Shown here piece by piece: positions 23,829 through 32,735 of a stretch of DNA of 64,000 bases (within the stretch, counting starts at the first letter, position 1; every line of letters begins with the position of its first letter). The notes below the pieces were generated by a model. It ran no database searches. It was not told the DNA's origin and saw only the letters and a program-made list of their open reading frames with translations. The stretch spans positions 16,744 to 80,743 of the forward strand of contig JAVRBO020000103.1 of NCBI GenBank assembly GCA_034531195.2. Direction: 5' to 3'. Both the position numbers and the translations under genes were made by a program. The stretch is from Nostoc sp. ChiSLP01 (GTDB taxonomy: Bacteria > Cyanobacteriota > Cyanobacteriia > Cyanobacteriales > Nostocaceae).

Positions 23829-24200
23829 TTAATCGCGGTCTTCGTCTTCATCGTCATCTCTGTGGCGATGTCTGTACTCGCGGTCTTCATCGTCGTCCTT
23901 GCGGCGATGTCTGTACTCGCGGTCTTCATCGTCGTCTTTGCGGCGATGTCTGTACTCGCGGTCTTCATCGTTGTCTTCGCTGCGATATCTGTAGCCATAG
24001 TCTTCGTCTTCTTCGTCTTCGCTGCGATATTTGTACTCGCGGTCTTCATCGTCGTCTTTGCGGCGATGTCTGTACTCGCGGTCTTCATCGTCGTCTTCGT
24101 CGCGATAACTATATTGGGTGCGATCGCGATTATCCCATTCTTCATCGCGTTGTTTCTGCTTGTTACCGACTATATTCTTAAACAAATCGCCTATTCCCAT
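23829..24200 (-). CDS. extremely charged Asp/Glu/Arg/Tyr repeat protein (hydrophilin-like, unknown function)
   Basis: A strong SD (AGGAGG) lies 8 nt before the ATG. The N-terminus is MGIGDLFKNIVGNKQKQ. About seven 13-aa repeats of KDDDEDREYRHRR follow (39-bp DNA unit). Other frames are open only because of the repeat. Confidence 0.6.
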   Translation of the reverse strand: MGIGDLFKNIVGNKQKQRDEEWDNRDRTQYSYRDEDDDEDREYRHRRKDDDEDREYKYRSEDEEDEDYGYRYRSEDNDEDREYRHRRKDDDEDREYRHRRKDDDEDREYRHRHRDDDEDEDRD

Positions 24201-25112: not shown

Positions 25113-26771
25113 ATGGCAAAGCCAGTTGAATTTAATTTATTTGCGCCATACAACAAAGGAGCCGCATTAATAGGTTCTTTTTCTGATTGGAAAGAAATTC
25201 CAATGGAAAAAGGTGAGGATGGCTATTTCCGCACAAGTGTTGAATTAGAAGATGGCGATTATCAATATAAATTTCGAGTTCAAACAAATTCATGGTTTTT
25301 TGAACCAGAACAATGGGTTGAAGTTACAGACCCTTATGCAACTGATATAGATGAAGTGGGTGGAAAAGATAACGGTATTGTCCGTATCAAAGATGGGGAA
25401 AGAATTGTTGATACTTATGTTTGGCGACATGATGATAAACCGTTACCTGCTGACCACGAATTAGTAATTTATGAACTGCATGTTGGTGATTTCTCTGGTG
25501 GTGAAGATGACCCTTATGCACGTGGCAAATATAAACACGTTGTTGAAAAATTAGATTATTTGTGCGAATTAGGAATCAACGCTATTGAGTTGATGCCAAT
25601 AAAAGAATATCCTGGCGATCATAGCTGGGGTTATAATCCTCGCTATTTCTTTGCAACAGAATCTAGTTATGGTACTACTGCTGAGTTGAAAAACTTGGTT
25701 GATGAGTGCCATGCTAGAGGCATTCGTGTAATTAATGATGGTATTTATAACCACTCAGAAGCATCTAGTCCGTTAACGCAAATTGACCACGATTATTGGT
25801 ATCATCACTCTCCCCGCGATCCTGATAATAATTGGGGGCCTGAGTTTAATTATGAACATTACGACGAAAATTTAGAAATTCATCCAGCACGGAAATTTAT
25901 TGGCGATACAATCCGTTTTTGGATTCAGGAATATCATCTTGATGGTATTCGGTATGACGCAGCGCGGCAAATTGCCAACTATGATTTCATGCACTGGATA
26001 GTGCAAGAAGCCAAAAATGCTGCTGGGCCGAAGCCTTTTTATAACGTTGCCGAACACATTCCTGAAACTACTAGCATTACCAATTTTGATGGGCCGATGG
26101 ATGGTTGCTGGCATGACAGCTTCTATCATTGCATTTTAGAACATATCTGCGGCGATACATTTGATTTAGAACGCCTTAAAGATGTTATTGACTGCAAACG
26201 TCAAGGTTTCTTGGGTGCTACTAATGTGGTAAATTACCTCACTAACCACGACCACAATCATCTCATGGTTGAATTGGGTAACCGTGAGATTTTTGATGAA
26301 GAAGCTTTTAGGCGGATTAAATTAGGAGTGGCTATCCTAATGACTGCTATTGGTGTGCCTTTGATTTGGATGGGTGAGGAATTTGGCGAGTATAAACCTA
26401 AACAACCTGAATCAGCTAAAATCGATTGGACGCTGTTAGGTAACGATCTAAATCGTGGTTTGTTTGAATATTACAAAGGCTTAACTAATCTGCGTAAAAG
26501 TAATCATGCTCTCTACACTGAAAACATTGATTTCATCCACGAAAATCCAGAGGCAAAAGTATTAGCTTATAGCCGTTGGAATGAGGAAGGTTCTCGTGTA
26601 GTTGTGGTGGCGAATTTCTCAGAAAATTTCCTAGCTGGCTATCATATTCCTAACTTTCCTGACGCTGGTACGTGGCACGAATGGACGGCGAATTATGATG
26701 TCGAAGCTGGTGATGATGGCATCATCATTGATTTGGGGCCATACGAAGCTAAAGTGTTTGTGTGGCAGTAA
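25113..26771 (+). CDS. GH13 alpha-amylase-family glycoside hydrolase with N-terminal CBM48-like module
   Basis: GH13 regions I-IV are present: GIRVINDGIYNH, DGIRYDAARQI, YNVAEHIPE, VNYLTNHDHN. The N-terminal 90 aa are beta-sandwich-like (FSDWKEIPMEKGEDGYF..YQYKF). Confidence 0.85.
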   Translation: MAKPVEFNLFAPYNKGAALIGSFSDWKEIPMEKGEDGYFRTSVELEDGDYQYKFRVQTNSWFFEPEQWVEVTDPYATDIDEVGGKDNGIVRIKDGERIVDTYVWRHDDKPLPADHELVIYELHVGDFSGGEDDPYARGKYKHVVEKLDYLCELGINAIELMPIKEYPGDHSWGYNPRYFFATESSYGTTAELKNLVDECHARGIRVINDGIYNHSEASSPLTQIDHDYWYHHSPRDPDNNWGPEFNYEHYDENLEIHPARKFIGDTIRFWIQEYHLDGIRYDAARQIANYDFMHWIVQEAKNAAGPKPFYNVAEHIPETTSITNFDGPMDGCWHDSFYHCILEHICGDTFDLERLKDVIDCKRQGFLGATNVVNYLTNHDHNHLMVELGNREIFDEEAFRRIKLGVAILMTAIGVPLIWMGEEFGEYKPKQPESAKIDWTLLGNDLNRGLFEYYKGLTNLRKSNHALYTENIDFIHENPEAKVLAYSRWNEEGSRVVVVANFSENFLAGYHIPNFPDAGTWHEWTANYDVEAGDDGIIIDLGPYEAKVFVWQ

Positions 26772-26953: not shown

Positions 26954-28840
26954 TTATATTTCTCTTAAAAAACTTGCATAATTCGCCCGAACTGTCATAG
27001 TAGTAGGATGACTGACACCTAAAGTCCGTTCGCAAATTTTCAAAGCTTGCTCAAACAGTGGTTTGGCTTTCCTGTAGCGTCTTGTATGGCGGTAGAGTGC
27101 TGCTAAATTATTCAGACTAATGGCGACATCGGGATGGTTTTCTCCCAAAAGACGTTTAGTCAGTTCCAAAGCTTGCTTATAGAAGGGTTCGGCTTCGCTG
27201 TAGCGTCCTGTAGATTCGTAAAGTTGTCCTAAATTGTTCAAGCTAGTAGCAACATCGGCGTGTTCTTCTCCCAGTAGCCGTTTTCTCAGCTTTAAAGCTT
27301 GCTTGAGCAAGGGTTCGGCTTCGCTGTAGCGTCCTGTAAAACAGTACAATGCTCCTAAATTGTTCAGGCTAGTAGCCACATGGGGATGTTCTTCTCCCAC
27401 TAAGCGTTTCCAGAGTTCTAAAGCTTGCTGATACAAAGATTCGGCTTTACCATAGCGTCCTGTAGATTCGTAGACTACTGCTAAATAGCTCAAATTAGTA
27501 GCGACATCAGGATGTTCTTCTCCTAGCAGGCGTTTTCTCAGTTTTAAAGCTTGCTCAAACAAAGGTCTGGCTTCGGTATAGTGTCCTGTAGATTCGTAGA
27601 GTAATGCTAAATTGTTGAGGCTAGTGGCGACATCAAGATGGTTGTCTCCCAACAGACGTTTTGTCAGTTCTAAAGCTTGCCGATACAAGGGTTCGGCTTC
27701 ACTGTAGCGTCCTGTAGATTCATAAAGTCCTGCTAAATTGTTGAGGCTAGCAGCGATATAAGAATGTTCTAAACCAAGATGATTTTGAGTTAGTTTTACA
27801 CACCGTTGCAACCAAGATTCTGCTTGCTGATAAAGTCCTTGTCCTTGATAAAACCAAGCTAATTTAGTAAACACAGCGATGAGGTTTTCATCGCTGAGAT
27901 ACTGGGATAGGTGGGTTGCAACTTCTGTAATGTGCGGGATATGTGGAGTGAAATTGACAATATCTTCAGGATTAGGCTGTTGCGGAATTAGATTTGCTAC
28001 CTCTAACATCATTGCTGCAAATTTAGTTTTTGCTTCATCCGCTTCATTTGAATTATCTAACTTTATTCGGAGAAGTTGCCGAATTAAGGGATTTAAAAGA
28101 TAAATTACTTTACTTTTCTGTTGTAGCAAATGCAATTCTAGTAAATCGGCGATCGCTTTTTCATCGAGCTGTTGTTTTTTCTCGTCTTCTATCGTCTCCA
28201 CAGATAAAGGAATGTCAGCTAAAGCACACAAACTCAGCAAACAGCCAAAGCTTTGTGCATTCTTATCTAGTTGTTCCCAACTCAATTCAAAAGCTTCAGC
28301 TACACCGTATTCGTAATGCATCAACGAGTTAGCATTGGCTACGGGTTCATGTTCTTCTCGCTTTTTCTCTAGCCGCTTTAGCAGTATTTCTAAAGACAAA
28401 TCCGGTATTTTATTGAGATATCGCCCCACTAACTCTAAGGCTAAAGGTGAATATCCCAAAAATTTACAAATTCTTTTGGCGACCCAGGGTTCTTGTTGCA
28501 GCCTTTCTCGAACCACTAGCGATTTTAATAGTTTTATCGCCGCTAATGGTTTGAGGACATCTAATTCGCTATTATATTTTGCCCTCAGGTAAGCTTGTAA
28601 CTTTTCTAGTTTGCCCTGACTTTTGGAAATAGCTAATTCAGGATAATTCTGGGCAAATTTGTCATATAGCTCGCCCATCCACTTTCTAAAAGTAGGGATA
28701 TCAACGTTTAATTCGCTGGCAAGTTGAGCTTCAGTTTTACCTAAATTTTCAGTCTTAAAATAGTTTACAAAAGCTACAGTCTGTTCAAGGGATAAGCCAG
28801 TAGTAGCAGCTTCTTTGGCTAGAAAATTAGCCCATTGCAT
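26954..28840 (-). CDS. HTH / ARC-remnant / TPR protein: paralogue of 30211..32601 lacking the P-loop NTPase core
   Basis: The N-terminal 90 aa are homologous to the neighbour (MQWANFLAKEAA..LSLEQTVAFVNYFKTENLGKTEAQLASELNVDIPTFRKWM). The sequence then jumps directly to LKPLAAIKLLKSLV..GYSPLALELVGRYL and 42-aa TPRs. No Walker A, Walker B or TTR motif is present. Confidence 0.85.
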   Translation of the reverse strand: MQWANFLAKEAATTGLSLEQTVAFVNYFKTENLGKTEAQLASELNVDIPTFRKWMGELYDKFAQNYPELAISKSQGKLEKLQAYLRAKYNSELDVLKPLAAIKLLKSLVVRERLQQEPWVAKRICKFLGYSPLALELVGRYLNKIPDLSLEILLKRLEKKREEHEPVANANSLMHYEYGVAEAFELSWEQLDKNAQSFGCLLSLCALADIPLSVETIEDEKKQQLDEKAIADLLELHLLQQKSKVIYLLNPLIRQLLRIKLDNSNEADEAKTKFAAMMLEVANLIPQQPNPEDIVNFTPHIPHITEVATHLSQYLSDENLIAVFTKLAWFYQGQGLYQQAESWLQRCVKLTQNHLGLEHSYIAASLNNLAGLYESTGRYSEAEPLYRQALELTKRLLGDNHLDVATSLNNLALLYESTGHYTEARPLFEQALKLRKRLLGEEHPDVATNLSYLAVVYESTGRYGKAESLYQQALELWKRLVGEEHPHVATSLNNLGALYCFTGRYSEAEPLLKQALKLRKRLLGEEHADVATSLNNLGQLYESTGRYSEAEPFYKQALELTKRLLGENHPDVAISLNNLAALYRHTRRYRKAKPLFEQALKICERTLGVSHPTTMTVRANYASFLREI

Positions 28841-28966
28841 AATAGTTTATTAACTTTATTTTTGATTCTACTTTGTCTCGATTTGCAAACCTCCTCTCTT
28901 TGAGGGAAATATACATTTATATAAAAAGATTTAAAAGCAGTTGCCACCTTTAGCCAATTGTCAGTT

Positions 28967-29239
28967 GAGCCTCAGAAGGTCAACGTCGAGCCTCAGAAGG
29001 TCAAAGTTGAGCCTCAGAAGGTCAACGTCGAGCCTCGGAAGGTCAACTTCGAGCCTCAGAAGGTCAACTTCGAGCCTCAGAAGGTCAACGTTGAGCCTCG
29101 GAAGGTCAAAGTTGAGCCTCAGAAGGTCAACTTCGAGCCTCAGAAGGTCAACGTCGAGCCTCGGAAGGTCAAAGTTGAGCCTCGGAAGGTCAAAGTTGAG
29201 CCTCAGAAGGTCAAAGTTGAGCCTCGGAAGGTCAAAGTT
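28967..29239. repeat. 21-bp tandem array B (13 units, GAGCCTC[A/G]GAAGGTCAA[C/A][G/T]T[C/T])
   Basis: I counted 13 contiguous units from 28967 to 29239. Variation is confined to 4 positions. The array begins 127 bp upstream of the start of the 26954..28840 gene. Confidence 0.95.
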
Positions 29240-29267
29240 GGCATTTAGAACTTAAAATGCTCGAGCT

Positions 29268-29659: not shown

Positions 29660-30199
29660 TTAGCCTGCCCGCCGCAGGTTCTTGCTAACCCATTCCCTCG
29701 CTGCTGTCGGTGCTAATCGCTGCAACTCGGCGCAAAATCGTTTGTAGAAGGCTTCGTATTCACTGATAAACTCCCGATAGCTAAACCTTACTTTCTGCCA
29801 TTCGTCATTCCCTTCGCCATCCGATATCGCGGAATCTATGATGGATAAATACATCGTCTCGCCCTCTCGCTCAAAGAGAAATGCCGGCTGCCCTTGCTCC
29901 CCTTCGTCAAAACAGTAGCGGGCTTGAGCGCTACCTTTGAACTCGTGGCGGATTCTTTCGAGTTCCTCAATCCACTGAGAGAAGCACACGTCATTCGCTC
30001 CCCAATAACCCATATATGGGACGAAACGATTACCAATATTAATCAATAAAGCGCCATGAATGTGGCTGGAGGCATCTAATTCCGTCAACGGCAAGCGGGT
30101 ATTATTACCAACTTTGATGACAGCCAGATCCTCGAAAGTAATTTTGATAATGGAATTTTGTTGCATAAGCTTCAGATCGTGGTGTGATTTTGGGAGCAA
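29660..30199 (-). CDS. hypothetical protein, co-oriented immediately downstream of the NB-ARC/TPR gene
   Basis: It is 179 aa from TTG 30199 or 168 aa from ATG 30166, lying 12 or 44 nt after the upstream stop. I recognise no family (..FVPYMGYWGANDVCFSQWIEELERI..). It appears soluble, with no TM helix or signal peptide. Confidence 0.6.
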   Translation of the reverse strand: MLPKSHHDLKLMQQNSIIKITFEDLAVIKVGNNTRLPLTELDASSHIHGALLINIGNRFVPYMGYWGANDVCFSQWIEELERIRHEFKGSAQARYCFDEGEQGQPAFLFEREGETMYLSIIDSAISDGEGNDEWQKVRFSYREFISEYEAFYKRFCAELQRLAPTAAREWVSKNLRRAG

Positions 30200-30210
30200 G
30201 GGGGCGATCG

Positions 30211-32601
30211 CTAGCGATATGCTTCTCTTAAAAACCTGGCATGATTTCCCCGAACCGTGATTGTATCAGGATGACCTACACCTAAAACACGCTCATAAAT
30301 AGCCAAAGCTTGCTGATATAGAGGTTCAGCTTCGCTGTAGCGTCCTGTAGAACGGTAGAGTTCTGCCAGATTGTTCAAGGTAGTGGCGACATCGGGATGG
30401 TTTTCTCCCAGTAAGCGTTTTCTCAGTTCTAAAGCTTGCTGATACAGAGGTTCAGCTTCGCTATAGTGTTCTGTAGAACGGTAGACTGTTGCGAGATTGT
30501 TCAAGGTAGTGGCGACATCGGGATGGTTTTCTCCCTGTAGGCCTTTTCTCAATGTCAAAGCTTGTAGATGCAAAGCTTCAGCTTCGCTGTAGCGTCCTGT
30601 AGAACAGTAGAGTACTGCCAGATTGTTCAGGCTAGAGGCGACATGGGGATGGTTGTCTTTGAATAAGCGTTTTGTCAGTTCTAAAGTTTGCTGCAAGAGA
30701 GGTTCAGCCTCGCTGTAACGTCCTCTAAAACGGTAGAATAATCCCAGATTGTTCATGCTAGTGGCGACATCGGGATCGTTGTCTCCCAGTAACCGTTTTC
30801 TCAGTTCTAAAGCTTCCTTATAAAGCTGTTCAGCTTCTTTGTAGCGTCCTCTATAATCGTAGACTAATGCCAAATTGTTCAGGCTATTGGCGACATAAGA
30901 ATGGTTGTCTCCCAGTAAGCGTTTTGTCAGTTCTAAATTTTGCTGCAAGATAGGTTCAGCTTCGCTGTAGCGTGCTGTAGAAAGATAGAGTATTCCTAGA
31001 TTGTGGAGGCTAGCAGCAACATGGAGGTGTTCTAAACCAAAACGATTTTTAGTCACTTCTACACACTGCTGCAACCAAGGTTGTGCTTGCTCGTATAAGC
31101 CTTGTCCTGTATAAAACCAGCCTAAACCCCTGAATATGTAAATTAAATCTTCATCGTTGACGTAGCTAATCATATAATTAGCTACTTCTACCAAATGAGG
31201 GATAAAAGGGGTGAGTTGTTGAATCAAATCACGGTTAGGGAATTGCGAAATTTGCTTTGCTTTCTCTATCATGTGAACGGTAAAAGCAGTTTTCACTTCA
31301 TCAGCCTCGCTAGACTTATTTAGCTTCATTTGAAAAAATTGCCGAATCAGTGGATGTAGTCGATATATTCCTTTACCCCGACGTTGTAGCAAATGCAGTT
31401 TTAGCAACTCAGCTATAGCTTTTTCCTTGAGTTCTTGTTCTTCGTCATTTTCTACCGCCTCAACAGAAAAAGGAATGTCAGCCAAAGCATACAGACTCAG
31501 CCTACAGCCTAATCTTTGTGCATTTTCATCCAACTGTTCCCAACTCAATGCAAAAGCTTCAGCCACACCATATTCATAACGCATCAATGGGTTAGCCTTG
31601 GCTATTGCTTCATGTTCCAGTCGCTTTTTCTCTAGCCGCTTCAGCAGTTTTTCTAGAGACAAATCTGGCATTGTATCCAGATATCGCCCCACTAACTCTA
31701 ACGCCAAAGGTAAATATCCCAAGTCTCTACAAATTTTTCTCGCAACCCAAGGTTCGCTTTTCAACCGTTCTCTGTCAACCAGCGATTTTAATAATTTCAT
31801 CGCCGCCAATGGTTTGAGAACACCCAAAGGTAATTGTGGCAAAGTTCTATCAAACCCCAAGCGCGTTGTCAGCAATACTTTAAACCGAAGTGATTCTGGC
31901 GGTAGATAAGACTGAACCTGTTTTTTGTAGTCGGTGACATCATCAAACACCAGCAGCACTTCACCTTGTTGCCAATTCTGCCAGCAGTATCTCAGCCTAT
32001 CTGCTAATTCCCAATCATCCGGTGCAATGAGTTTAAATTTTAATTGAGCAAATCTGAGAATTTGAATTCCGACATCTATTCCCTGTACAGATAACCAGCA
32101 AACCCCACCTTCATAATTCTGCAAATACTGTTTGGCGTATTGGGTAGCAAGTTCAGTTTTCCCGACTCCACCCATACCCGCCACAGCTACAATTGCAACT
32201 TGCCGAGATGTTTGTAATTTCTGGTGCAGTTCTTCTAGTTTTGTCTCACGCCCCACAAATTTTTCAAATGGAACAGCAGGCGGAATATTTTCATAAATCT
32301 GCTTAACTGTGGGGTGGGCATCTTGCCCGCCATTATATTTCTTTATCAGGCAAGCCCGTAACTTTTCTAGCTTACCGCGACTGTTAGAAGTGGCTAATTC
32401 AGGATAACTCTTGGCAAACTTGTCATACACCTCAGCCATCCGCTTTTTGAAAGCAGCCGCACCAATGTTTAATTTGCTGGCTAGTTTCGCTTCACTCTTT
32501 CCTGAGTTTTCAGTCTTCAACCGCTCTACAAAAGCTGCCGTTTGCTCTGGGGATAAGCTATTAATAGCAGCTTCTTTGGCTAAAAAATCAGCCCATTCCA
32601 T
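30211..32601 (-). CDS. STAND NTPase: LuxR/sigma-r4-like HTH + NB-ARC + kinesin-light-chain-type TPR array
   Basis: The HTH-like pattern is LSPEQTAAFVERLKTENSGKSEAKLASKLNIGAAAFKKRMAEVYDKF. NB-ARC motifs are present: Walker A AGMGGVGKTELA, Walker B VLLVFDDV, LLTTR, GYLPLALELVG. About nine 42-aa TPRs follow (LNNLAxLYxxxGRYSEAEPL). Confidence 0.9.
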   Translation of the reverse strand: MEWADFLAKEAAINSLSPEQTAAFVERLKTENSGKSEAKLASKLNIGAAAFKKRMAEVYDKFAKSYPELATSNSRGKLEKLRACLIKKYNGGQDAHPTVKQIYENIPPAVPFEKFVGRETKLEELHQKLQTSRQVAIVAVAGMGGVGKTELATQYAKQYLQNYEGGVCWLSVQGIDVGIQILRFAQLKFKLIAPDDWELADRLRYCWQNWQQGEVLLVFDDVTDYKKQVQSYLPPESLRFKVLLTTRLGFDRTLPQLPLGVLKPLAAMKLLKSLVDRERLKSEPWVARKICRDLGYLPLALELVGRYLDTMPDLSLEKLLKRLEKKRLEHEAIAKANPLMRYEYGVAEAFALSWEQLDENAQRLGCRLSLYALADIPFSVEAVENDEEQELKEKAIAELLKLHLLQRRGKGIYRLHPLIRQFFQMKLNKSSEADEVKTAFTVHMIEKAKQISQFPNRDLIQQLTPFIPHLVEVANYMISYVNDEDLIYIFRGLGWFYTGQGLYEQAQPWLQQCVEVTKNRFGLEHLHVAASLHNLGILYLSTARYSEAEPILQQNLELTKRLLGDNHSYVANSLNNLALVYDYRGRYKEAEQLYKEALELRKRLLGDNDPDVATSMNNLGLFYRFRGRYSEAEPLLQQTLELTKRLFKDNHPHVASSLNNLAVLYCSTGRYSEAEALHLQALTLRKGLQGENHPDVATTLNNLATVYRSTEHYSEAEPLYQQALELRKRLLGENHPDVATTLNNLAELYRSTGRYSEAEPLYQQALAIYERVLGVGHPDTITVRGNHARFLREAYR

Positions 32602-32735
32602 AGACAGCTTGTGAGATTTCTTCTCGATTCTACTTAATTTCTACTTTTTTTCTACTTTGTCTCTATTTCTAGGGAATTTCCTCTTCTTTGGGCAGAAATA
32701 CGATTTGCATAGAAACATTTAGAAGAGGTTTAGCC

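Follow-up and report, generated by a model that had tools for sequence, protein, structure and literature searches.

A STAND paralogue of Nostoc that lacks the P-loop domain and appears to be maintained under selection

STAND and NLR proteins are defined by a nucleotide switch. A gene called S, which resides in a 64,000-nucleotide stretch of DNA from Nostoc sp. ChiSLP01 (the window), carries a natural and long-term deletion of this switch domain at domain boundaries, and lies close to a full-length paralogue called L. This arrangement raises the question of whether S is a broken copy or a protein that functions without its switch. Comparisons with other genomes indicate that S encodes a functional protein of a kind not described before and is no gene in decay: its ADP-locking histidine has been replaced, purifying selection is evident across at least 75 species, and its TPR array is kept more faithfully than that of L. 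S therefore offers a tractable bacterial system for learning what an ARC scaffold, a sensor and an output domain are capable of once nucleotide control is gone. It bears on how a permanently unlocked STAND transcription factor changes, and on whether regulation by truncated NLRs, as in plants, arose independently in multicellular cyanobacteria.

The block that separates two paralogues

The original prediction described two collinear, neighbouring reading frames of 628 and 796 amino acids, the shorter of which lacks an NTPase core of about 170 residues. Both frames were recovered at their predicted positions on the minus strand, and the following features define the difference between them.

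26954–28840, minus strand: S gene, encoding a 628-aa paralogue without the nucleotide-binding domain (NBD); parts are the N-domain, HD1, WHD, HD2 and TPR array
30211–32601, minus strand: L gene, encoding a 796-aa STAND protein (HTH-like N-domain, NB-ARC and TPR), paralogue of S
31822–32319, minus strand: segment of L without a counterpart in S (residues 95–260, P-loop NBD); dN/dS of 0.27 among L orthologues
28553–28570, minus strand: deletion junction of S (residues 91–96, NSELD/VL), where helix 5 of the N-domain is joined straight to the first HD1 helix

The exact S protein is recorded at NCBI as MFN6564918.1 (Nostoc sp. ChiSLP01/CmiSLP01) and L as MFN6564920.1. At present S is annotated merely as a 'tetratricopeptide repeat protein', an annotation blind spot that extends across all these genes.

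Alignment by BLASTP and MAFFT bears out the collinearity of the two proteins. Residues 1–94 of S and L are 63% identical, and S residues 93–627 match L residues 259–793 without gaps at 66% identity, leaving a single indel comprising one block of 166 residues (approximately L95–L260). This block holds Walker A (GMGGVGKT, L142–149), Walker B (LLVFDD, L216–221) and the KVLLTTR motif (L241–247), which confirms that the core is missing from Walker A through TTR. Consistent with this, L matches the Pfam NB-ARC model at residues 118–329 (E = 6e-20) and S yields no Pfam NB-ARC (PF00931) match. Thus, the P-loop NTPase with Walker A and Walker B that typifies STAND proteins is present in L and absent from S.

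The junction occupies the identical position in all 75 S genes, and the sequence KYNSELD/VLKPLAAMKLLK was found again in 74 independent genome assemblies, a recurrence far beyond chance. In an AF2 model the junction forms a short loop between helices spanning residues 77–93 and 98–108. Breakpoints are defined to roughly 4 codons at best, because the 'SELD' residues of S can be aligned to either flank, and microhomology at the breakpoints is weak (G(A/G)TG).

Origin of the short gene and selection on it

A search of related strains for the short form, which the original prediction had proposed, revealed S orthologues with the same junction in 74 other Nostoc and Desmonostoc genomes, and the S reading frame is intact in 75 of 75. 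Complete genomes with S include those of N. commune NIES-4072, N. sphaeroides CHAB 2801, N. edaphicum CCNP1411, N. linckia NIES-25 and Nostoc sp. UHCC 0926, C110 and DSM 114161. The split between S and L in the tree has 100/100 support, and therefore points to one ancient deletion. Gene conversion between the paralogues is unsupported, since identity between S and L within a genome (0.684) is about equal to that between genomes (0.681).

Maintenance of S had been argued previously from the many differences between the two copies. This argument does not hold, because the divergence of the paralogues could all predate the deletion; pairwise dN/dS values between S and L (0.34–0.45), which blend both branches and both pre- and post-deletion time, were dropped as proof for the same reason. 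Comparisons among S orthologues were used in their place. These pairwise NG86 estimates, which are not tree-based, give a post-deletion dN/dS (omega) of 0.31 for S and 0.32 for L, far from the value near 1 that would speak against maintenance. By region, S values are 0.45 for the N-domain, which is its least constrained part, 0.28 for ARC-WH, 0.22 for HD2 and 0.20 for the TPR array. The corresponding TPR value in L is 0.42, and dN for this array is 0.074 in S versus 0.175 in L. Moreover, a neutral simulation gives a probability of only 0.004 that the reading frame would stay open at just 0.05 substitutions per site. The conclusion of the earlier argument thus stands on other grounds (75 of 75 intact frames, dN/dS and single origin), and sequence evidence strongly supports S as a gene kept under selection rather than freshly broken.

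Broken L-type genes are frequent in this family, which could favour reading S as a pseudogene, a recent lesion or an assembly artefact. However, neither a broken frame nor an omega near 1 is seen (regional values are 0.20–0.45), and 75 independent assemblies carry an intact frame with the same junction, an omega that is mostly 0.2–0.3 and a fixed histidine-to-asparagine change. These observations refute this explanation, whose probability we regard as negligible.

Domains retained in the short protein

What S retains was assessed by profile searches, AF2 models and Foldseek comparisons, with the following assignments.

28565–28840, minus strand: N-terminal domain of S (residues 1–92), five helices, putative HTH resembling sigma70 region 4 (r4) and LuxR (AF2, Foldseek)
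27836–28558, minus strand: retained ARC module of S (residues 95–335: HD1 with GxP motif, winged helix and HD2); AF2 pLDDT of 88
28091–28093, minus strand: Asn250 codon (AAT) of S at the MHD-type switch-histidine position; Asn in 75 of 75 S genes
31354–31356, minus strand: His416 codon (CAT) of L, MHD-type switch histidine; His in 31 of 31 L genes
26957–27835, minus strand: TPR sensor array of S (kinesin-light-chain-type TPR_12/TPR_10; 42-aa/126-nt units; Pfam, TRF period of 126)

The N-domain of S is modelled with a pLDDT of about 85–88. Its best Foldseek matches are region 4 of the sigma factors SigL, SigC, SigD and SigE, along with HTH domains of the LuxR/FixJ/NarL type (probability 0.8–0.9), although these same matches are weak (E = 0.27–3, TM = 0.4–0.67). 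No Pfam or NCBIfam match to Sigma70_r4, Sigma70_r4_2 or GerE appears even at E ≤ 10, a profile search against PDB sequences gave only marginal matches (ChrA, 0.36; FliA, 0.87), and Pfam, NCBIfam and PADLOC searches with the N-domain and a 179-aa reading frame gave nothing informative. Protein A, the top match of the profile search against PDB, was discarded as a weak three-helix motif summed across repeats. A search with the N-domain alone, whose matches were apparently limited to lengths under about 1.75 times the query, recovered just short reading frames that are mostly broken L genes and give no evidence of a stand-alone N-domain family. The previous description of S as an HTH plus sensor without the nucleotide switch is therefore upheld at the level of the fold. 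The sigma-r4/LuxR-like assignment is a tentative one, given Foldseek E-values of 0.27 or more and no HMM match.

These weak E-values and the missing HMM matches to Sigma70_r4 or GerE would also suit an N-domain that acts as a homotypic adaptor or RNAP-binding module, with S serving as a scaffold between a second protein and the partner bound by its TPRs, rather than as a transcription factor. Sigma region 4 also binds the RNAP beta-flap and anti-sigma factors, and such complexes are among the structural matches. Nevertheless, almost all top matches are DNA-binding r4 or LuxR domains, and the pattern LSxEQ..AF..(K)SEAKLASEL.I..AAFKKRM.EVYDKF fits their helix-turn-helix layout. In addition, cyanobacterial proteins are on record in which sigma70-type (r4/ECF) modules occur together with NB-ARC and TPR domains (PMC11119718). 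On balance, we consider a role other than DNA binding very unlikely. The proteins in the available portion of that source are recognised by Pfam sigma70 models, whereas the S and L N-domains are not, and the same portion describes no NBD-less derivative.

The ARC module of S resembles Apaf-1 (3sfz, E = 7.7e-4; also 3shf and 1z6t), ZAR1 (6j5u), NRC2, RPP1 and CED-4 in Foldseek comparisons. The GxxPLALELVG motif, which was assigned to the winged helix in the original prediction, was misplaced there: GY(L/S)PLALELVG sits in the helical HD1 (ARC1) subdomain, which has an Apaf-1/ZAR1 fold and carries the motif proline in 73 of 75 S and 31 of 31 L proteins. S shows good conservation of HD1 and WHD (omega 0.28, entropy 0.31–0.50). 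The WHD fold is present in the model (beta-hairpin 240–248), yet the ADP-contacting MHD-type histidine of STAND proteins is replaced by Asn in every S protein. The equivalent L residue, His416, aligns with His603 of AfsR, an experimentally defined activation-switch residue, and AfsR becomes constitutively active when H603/D604 is mutated by design (bioRxiv 10.64898/2026.09.02.748808).

AfsR (a large SARP of Streptomyces; PDB 8k60/8jke), MalT and the LAL family share with L an N-terminal DNA-binding module (putative in L), an NB-ARC-type NOD and TPRs. The solved structure nearest to the L NOD is AfsR 8k60 (E = 3e-17 and 1e-12; L residues 130–424 versus 318–611), and L His416 corresponds to the histidine of the AfsR F/Y-HD switch. 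L scores 125 bits against the NCBIfam AfsR model, far under its cut-off of 1430. The AfsR N-terminus is a SARP module (OmpR-type wHTH plus BTAD), for which no Pfam or NCBIfam match was found here, whereas that of S and L is a five-helix domain of putative sigma-r4/LuxR type. S differs further from AfsR in lacking the whole NBD and in carrying Asn at the switch position. The literature searched contained no natural NBD-less paralogue of the AfsR or MalT type with a retained ARC module.

The C-terminal repeat sensor expected of a STAND protein is present in S (TPR_12/TPR_10, E = 1e-122), and TPR copy number differs between species in 42-aa steps. RNPP-type regulators (PlcR, NprR, PrgX and Rgg) are one-component HTH plus TPR regulators that have no NTPase; their HTHs are of the XRE type and they are not derived from STAND proteins. 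Like them, S couples an N-terminal HTH (putative in S) to a TPR sensor of ligands or partners without an NTPase, and the underlying logic is probably the same. However, the RNPP TPRs are unrelated and only S has an HD1-WHD-HD2 relic between HTH and TPR, and so the likeness is convergent and does not imply membership.

Locus context and candidate modes of action

A pentapeptide gene followed by gcvT-gcvH-gcvP lies beside S in 53–59 of 75 loci; FHA proteins, endonuclease V and GH13 are also neighbours, making this a conserved housekeeping context. A PADLOC test for anti-phage defence STANDs (Avs/bNACHT) gave generic TPR matches only, and no defence-island context was seen. L and S form a same-strand tandem in the window and in no fewer than 29 other genomes, for a total of at least 30, which is about half of the species. 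Another 29 genomes carry S with no L within 10 kb, the distance over which absence was judged, such that L-type paralogues may occur elsewhere in those genomes. S is equally constrained in both settings (omega 0.29 with and 0.31 without an adjacent L), L occurrence is patchy on the S tree, and decayed L fragments lie beside an intact S at three L-less loci.

The upstream regions of the two genes are also related.

28841–28970, minus strand: 5′ region of S, homologous to that of L; common block at about 28907–28933
32696–32721, minus strand: counterpart of this common block upstream of L, TAAATGTTTCTATGCAAATCGTATTT

Footprinting of the regions upstream of 69 S and 32 L genes revealed a 26-nt block, TAAATGTTTCTATGCAAATGGTATTT, that is identical in both consensus sequences; the S copy in this window is more diverged (TAAATCTTTTTATATAAATGTATATTT). 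This block is the only lead kept from the footprinting. Strong non-coding conservation of the upstream region was rejected (identity of 0.775, versus 0.833 at third positions of codons in the neighbouring coding sequence). A promoter-like match at 28935–28908 in the S 5′ region is not above the chance rate, a promoter and terminator consensus scan was uninformative, with counts equal to shuffled expectation, and an Rfam search returned nothing relevant.

We consider it somewhat probable that S is a functional, vertically inherited HTH-ARC-TPR regulator that is independent of nucleotide. S arose once, before the sampled Nostoc and Desmonostoc species radiated. An HTH-NB-ARC-TPR STAND gene underwent a tandem duplication that took in its 5′ region, after which one of the copies shed exactly the linker and P-loop domain in frame. 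The product retains the putative HTH, the HD1-WHD-HD2 scaffold and the TPR sensor, and is predicted to be unable to bind nucleotide or build a canonical NOD ring, its ADP-locking His now being Asn. In such an 'unlocked' regulator, output would be governed solely by binding at the highly conserved TPR/HD2 surface, and the molecule bound there is probably a cellular partner or ligand that is itself conserved. Its target promoters may be akin to the ones that L-type paralogues recognise, and may include its own. The neighbouring L does not appear to be needed for S function, because constraint is equal at loci that have no L within 10 kb, although S may buffer or compete with L-type proteins where they occur.

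S may act alone or may modulate L-type paralogues as NRG1C does in plants. NRG1C retains WHD-LRR, is located in the NRG1A/B cluster and outcompetes NRG1A for EDS1-SAG101 (PMC12177489). NRG1C (and N. benthamiana NRG2) and S are both paralogues of full-length STAND/NLR neighbours that have lost the nucleotide-binding and oligomerisation domain; both NRG1C, which is functional, and S keep a WHD and repeat sensor and are evolutionarily retained (PMC12177489). By analogy, S would compete with L-type STANDs for a ligand or partner through WHD-HD2-TPR, or for operator DNA through the HTH, and, being unable to oligomerise, would damp L signalling or set its threshold. The tandem arrangement, the common 5′ block, which suggests co-regulation, the similar recognition-helix regions of S and L, and the NRG1C precedent all fit this role. 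Antagonism has been shown for NRG1C, whereas for S it is a candidate role that we judge possible but rather unlikely. NRG1C is N-terminally truncated and lacks its CC-R output domain, whereas S arose by an internal, domain-precise excision and keeps its full N-domain (residues 1–92), HD1 and HD2. Furthermore, S is bacterial and genus-wide, its clustering with a full-length paralogue is not universal (29 loci lack L within 10 kb, with equal constraint on S), and it persists where its neighbour has gone or decays. The S TPR array also evolves at half the rate of that of L, and therefore does not track the L sensor.

The same rate difference, together with the persistence of S where L is lost or decayed, argues against S as an obligate subunit that docks on activated L or another NB-ARC paralogue via ARC/TPR and adds a second HTH or sensor, as modelled on sensor/helper NLR pairs. 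Such docking would fit the conservation of HD1 and WHD, through which protomers contact one another in NOD oligomers, and the tandem layout in about half of species. Nonetheless, S lacks the NBD, the main oligomerisation surface, and the near-equal same-genome and between-genome identities give no hint of pair-specific co-adaptation, making the heteromer improbable.

A more far-reaching reading casts S as a 'network modulator' of bacterial NLR/STAND proteins, in which a stable, genus-wide, open HTH-ARC-TPR core sits on a conserved partner, and fast-evolving, often-lost L-type sensors are accessory inputs that compete or co-assemble on shared promoters. This idea is tentative and, in our estimation, possible but rather unlikely. 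If true, it would be the first bacterial example and a prokaryotic counterpart of NRG1C that arose by a different, domain-precise excision.

Other NBD-less relatives of independent origin, sought as proteins without PF00931 or starting near residue 1, were rejected because none has the N-domain; these candidates are 3′ fragments starting inside the NBD or gene calls starting at HD1. Broken L-type genes are themselves common, and include N-domain-only reading frames, 3′ fragments and a relic in Komarekiella with a different deletion and a frameshift.

Extent and structural context of the missing block

The analysis concerns two homologous genes on the same strand:
26954–28840, minus strand: S, an ORF of 628 aa for the paralogue without a P-loop nucleotide-binding domain (NBD)
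30211–32601, minus strand: L, an ORF of 796 aa for the full-length STAND protein

BLASTP and MAFFT align residues 1–94 of both proteins at 63% identity, and L 259–793 with S 93–627 at 66% identity without a gap. Within the aligned region, the sole length difference is a single 166-residue block (L ~95–260) that contains Walker A (GMGGVGKT), Walker B (LLVFDD) and the KVLLTTR motif. In L, Pfam recognizes NB-ARC (PF00931, residues 118–329, E = 6e-20) ahead of TPRs of the kinesin-light-chain type (TPR_12, TPR_10); in S it finds the TPRs and no NB-ARC match. The original prediction of collinear copies, with the whole P-loop core missing from S, was therefore accurate, although the GxP motif it placed in the winged helix belongs to the helical HD1/ARC1 subdomain. 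The breakpoints are resolvable only to ~4 codons and show weak G(A/G)TG microhomology.

Modelled with AlphaFold2, S 1–335 (mean pLDDT 88.4) consists of a five-helix N-domain (1–93), a short loop, a helical bundle, a winged helix (β-hairpin 240–248) and a further helical domain. Foldseek matches it in the PDB to Apaf-1 (3sfz, E = 7.7e-4; 3shf; 1z6t), ZAR1, NRC2, RPP1, Roq1 and CED-4, which indicates that the modelled protein keeps the HD1–WHD–HD2 portion of the NB-ARC NOD module. The excision takes out exactly the linker and the P-loop α/β domain, with a folded domain on either side. The closest solved structure to the NOD of L is the STAND transcription factor AfsR (8k60).

The N-domain has no match in Pfam or NCBIfam, and its profile gives marginal matches to PDB sequences. 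Modelled alone (pLDDT 85.6), its top Foldseek neighbours are nearly all σ70 region 4 (SigL, SigC, SigD, SigE) and LuxR/FixJ/NarL-type HTH domains (probability 0.8–0.9, E at least 0.27). A σ-r4/LuxR-like HTH is likely but not proven. Cyanobacterial fusions of σ70-type domains with NB-ARC/TPR have been documented (PMC11119718).

A single deletion and selection on S

One GTDB genome per species was scanned, which yielded 76 loci, nearly all from Nostoc and Desmonostoc. S residues 1–334 matched collinearly over ~1,002 nt in 74 of them, and thus the deletion is common to those loci; the NTPase-less form that the original prediction proposed to seek elsewhere is present well beyond this strain. With the window copy included, all 75 S genes have a complete ATG-to-stop ORF and an identical junction, KYNSELD/VLKPLAAMKLLK. 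Orthologues span 504–683 aa, with modes at 588 and 630 that differ by one 42-aa TPR unit. A neighbour-joining tree of 335 shared positions separates S from L in 100 of 100 bootstraps, and median identities are 0.83 (S–S), 0.82 (L–L) and 0.68 (S–L). S–L identity is equal within (0.684) and between (0.681) genomes, which argues against gene conversion. There was therefore a single deletion event, which predates divergence of the sampled species, and S–S divergence is wholly post-deletion.

Many cultured, completely sequenced strains carry S, among them N. commune NIES-4072, N. sphaeroides CHAB 2801, N. edaphicum CCNP1411, N. linckia NIES-25 and D. muscorum CCALA 125; its annotation is invariably 'tetratricopeptide repeat protein' or 'hypothetical protein'. 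The window proteins are identical to database entries from Nostoc sp. ChiSLP01/CmiSLP01. When S 1–335 was searched against 1.84 billion 50%-identity representatives, exactly one (630 aa) aligned from residue 1 to 335 in a single stretch, and it is the S clade itself; in the other matches listed, the ARC region follows an NBD far inside the protein, or the match is a fragment without the N-domain.

The original case for maintenance, S–L divergence with an open frame, was insufficient, because full-length divergence followed by a recent deletion was possible. The S–L dN/dS of 0.34 (NG86) was likewise rejected as evidence, since it cannot separate the two branches. Pairwise values within each clade were used instead.

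Pairwise dN/dS by region
Shared head (overall): S–S 0.31; L–L 0.32
N-domain: S–S 0.45; L–L 0.34
NBD: S–S absent; L–L 0.27
ARC-WH: S–S 0.28; L–L 0.26
HD2 linker: S–S 0.22; L–L 0.37
TPR array, last four units (69 S, 27 L genes): S–S 0.20; L–L 0.42

Purifying selection is as strong on S as on L overall, and stronger in S over HD2 and the sensor parts. In neutral simulations of the window coding sequence, the 628-codon frame stayed open with a probability of 0.004 at 0.05 substitutions per site. The claim that S is maintained is supported by far stronger evidence than was first offered: the uniformly intact ORFs, the shared junction and the S–S ratio.

In both genes the TPR arrays (27038–27770 and 30305–31004) are 126-nt tandem repeats in the DNA (75–79% matches). 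S orthologues vary by whole 42-aa units (588, 630, 672 aa), which implies that the array undergoes unequal recombination even though its sequence is under strong purifying selection.

Relation to L and possible roles of S

Full-length L lies 2–5 kb upstream of S on the same strand in 30 loci and is absent from 29 further loci that have at least 7 kb of upstream sequence. L presence is patchy across the S tree, and dN/dS of S is 0.29 with L and 0.31 without it; constraint on S is independent of an adjacent L. Decayed L fragments sit just upstream of intact S in three L-less loci, and broken L-type genes are common in databases. Of the two copies, then, the NTPase-less one is stable and the full-length one volatile.

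One short ORF, P0113 (Komarekiella delphini-convector, 140 aa), has its own deletion, distinct from that of S: the segment before the P-loop runs directly into '...YLDTMPDLSLE' within HD1, after which the frame is lost. Many other short ORFs among P0109–P0126 represent just the N-domain of L-type genes. Deletions across the NBD and the decay of L are thus recurrent, with only the S event kept. An L-type subclade (L038:6634, L059:6533, L062:6792, L064:6444; 884–926 aa) departs from the canonical P-loop: in its version, G(M/I)SMSGVGKT, two inserted residues place Ser at a position where Walker A requires G/A. A further insertion follows GGQD (FGVSAT...). These paralogues may be NTPase-impaired full-length forms.

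At 16 positions, both clades are at least 90% conserved, each for its own residue. The MHD-type position is His in 31 of 31 L proteins (His416, YRLHPLIRQ) and Asn in 75 of 75 S proteins (Asn250), and His416 aligns directly onto AfsR His603. In plant NLRs this histidine hydrogen-bonds the ADP β-phosphate and locks the OFF state. The H603G/D604V double substitution renders AfsR constitutively active (bioRxiv 10.64898/2026.09.02.748808). In addition to losing the NBD, the S lineage has fixed another residue at the nucleotide-reading position, with the GxP motif and remaining scaffold conserved. Regulatory truncated NLRs in plants and STAND transcription factors in bacteria are already known; the literature searched describes no bacterial genus-wide STAND paralogue combining domain-precise internal NBD excision with a fixed MHD histidine replacement.

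S is a selected derivative without the nucleotide domain, its N-domain, ARC scaffold and sensor intact. Lacking the NBD and the locking histidine, it would be unable to reach an ADP-bound closed state or to build a canonical NOD oligomer, and so should act as an 'unlocked' HTH–TPR regulator, controlled only by ligands or partners of the very conserved HD2/TPR surface. RNPP-type regulators have an HTH–TPR architecture, on which the final architecture of S would have converged.

We slightly favour such an autonomous, switch-less regulator. By analogy with NRG1C (PMC12177489), S could instead compete with L-type STANDs, a tentative reading that we consider clearly less probable, although the two are not mutually exclusive. 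A role as an obligate heteromer subunit is unlikely; its obligate-neighbour version is weakened, and S is equally constrained where no L is adjacent. It is more doubtful still that the N-domain, given its HTH-like fold neighbours, is a non-DNA-binding adaptor, and with every frame intact the chance that S is a pseudogene is negligible.

Genomic surroundings and 5′ regions

Downstream of S, 53–59 of the 75 loci carry a convergent pentapeptide-repeat gene and then gcvT-gcvH-gcvP; upstream, endonuclease V and genes for FHA-domain proteins are present in 32–36 loci. The downstream position is taken instead by a GH13/CBM48 alpha-amylase gene (25113–26771) in the 10 loci of the window's sublineage. 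PADLOC returned nothing but generic TPR matches. The S locus is a conserved housekeeping neighbourhood, not a defence island, and its synteny argues for vertical inheritance. The pentapeptide-repeat gene adjoins S in most Nostoc species, and its product is secreted.

The 5′ regions of S and L are homologous. The two clade consensus sequences agree fully over a 26-nt block, TAAATGTTTCTATGCAAATGGTATTT, while coding regions are only ~75% identical; overall, conservation of the 5′ region does not exceed that of third codon positions. The block is a lead for common cis-regulation, not a demonstration of it. The hexamer AAATGG/AAATGT occurs three times in the shared 5′ block (28866–28933 and 32650–32721, minus strand; consensus of 69 S and 32 L upstream regions), and AAGTAGAA(A/T) has three copies in L versus one in S. 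Both might serve the HTH as operator or promoter repeats.

At 28963–29240, some 120 nt before S begins on its upstream side, 13.2 copies of a 21-nt unit, AGTTGAGCCTCAGAAGGTCAA (91% identity), give rise to two spurious repeat ORFs. Other species do not conserve this repeat upstream of S, where sequences diverge beyond about −130. Two further ORFs lie in the window:
29660–30199, minus strand: 179-aa ORF starting 11 nt past the L stop
23829–24200, minus strand: putative, highly charged DEDRE/YRHRRKDD-repeat ORF

The 179-aa ORF has no Pfam, NCBIfam or PADLOC match, and its exact sequence is absent from the protein collection. Of the 76 loci, only that of Nostoc linckia NIES-25 has it (94% identity), and it does not belong to the conserved S/L unit. 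The charged ORF overlies a 39-nt tandem repeat (23844–24097; 6.4 copies, 83% matches) that underlies overlapping predicted ORFs on both strands.
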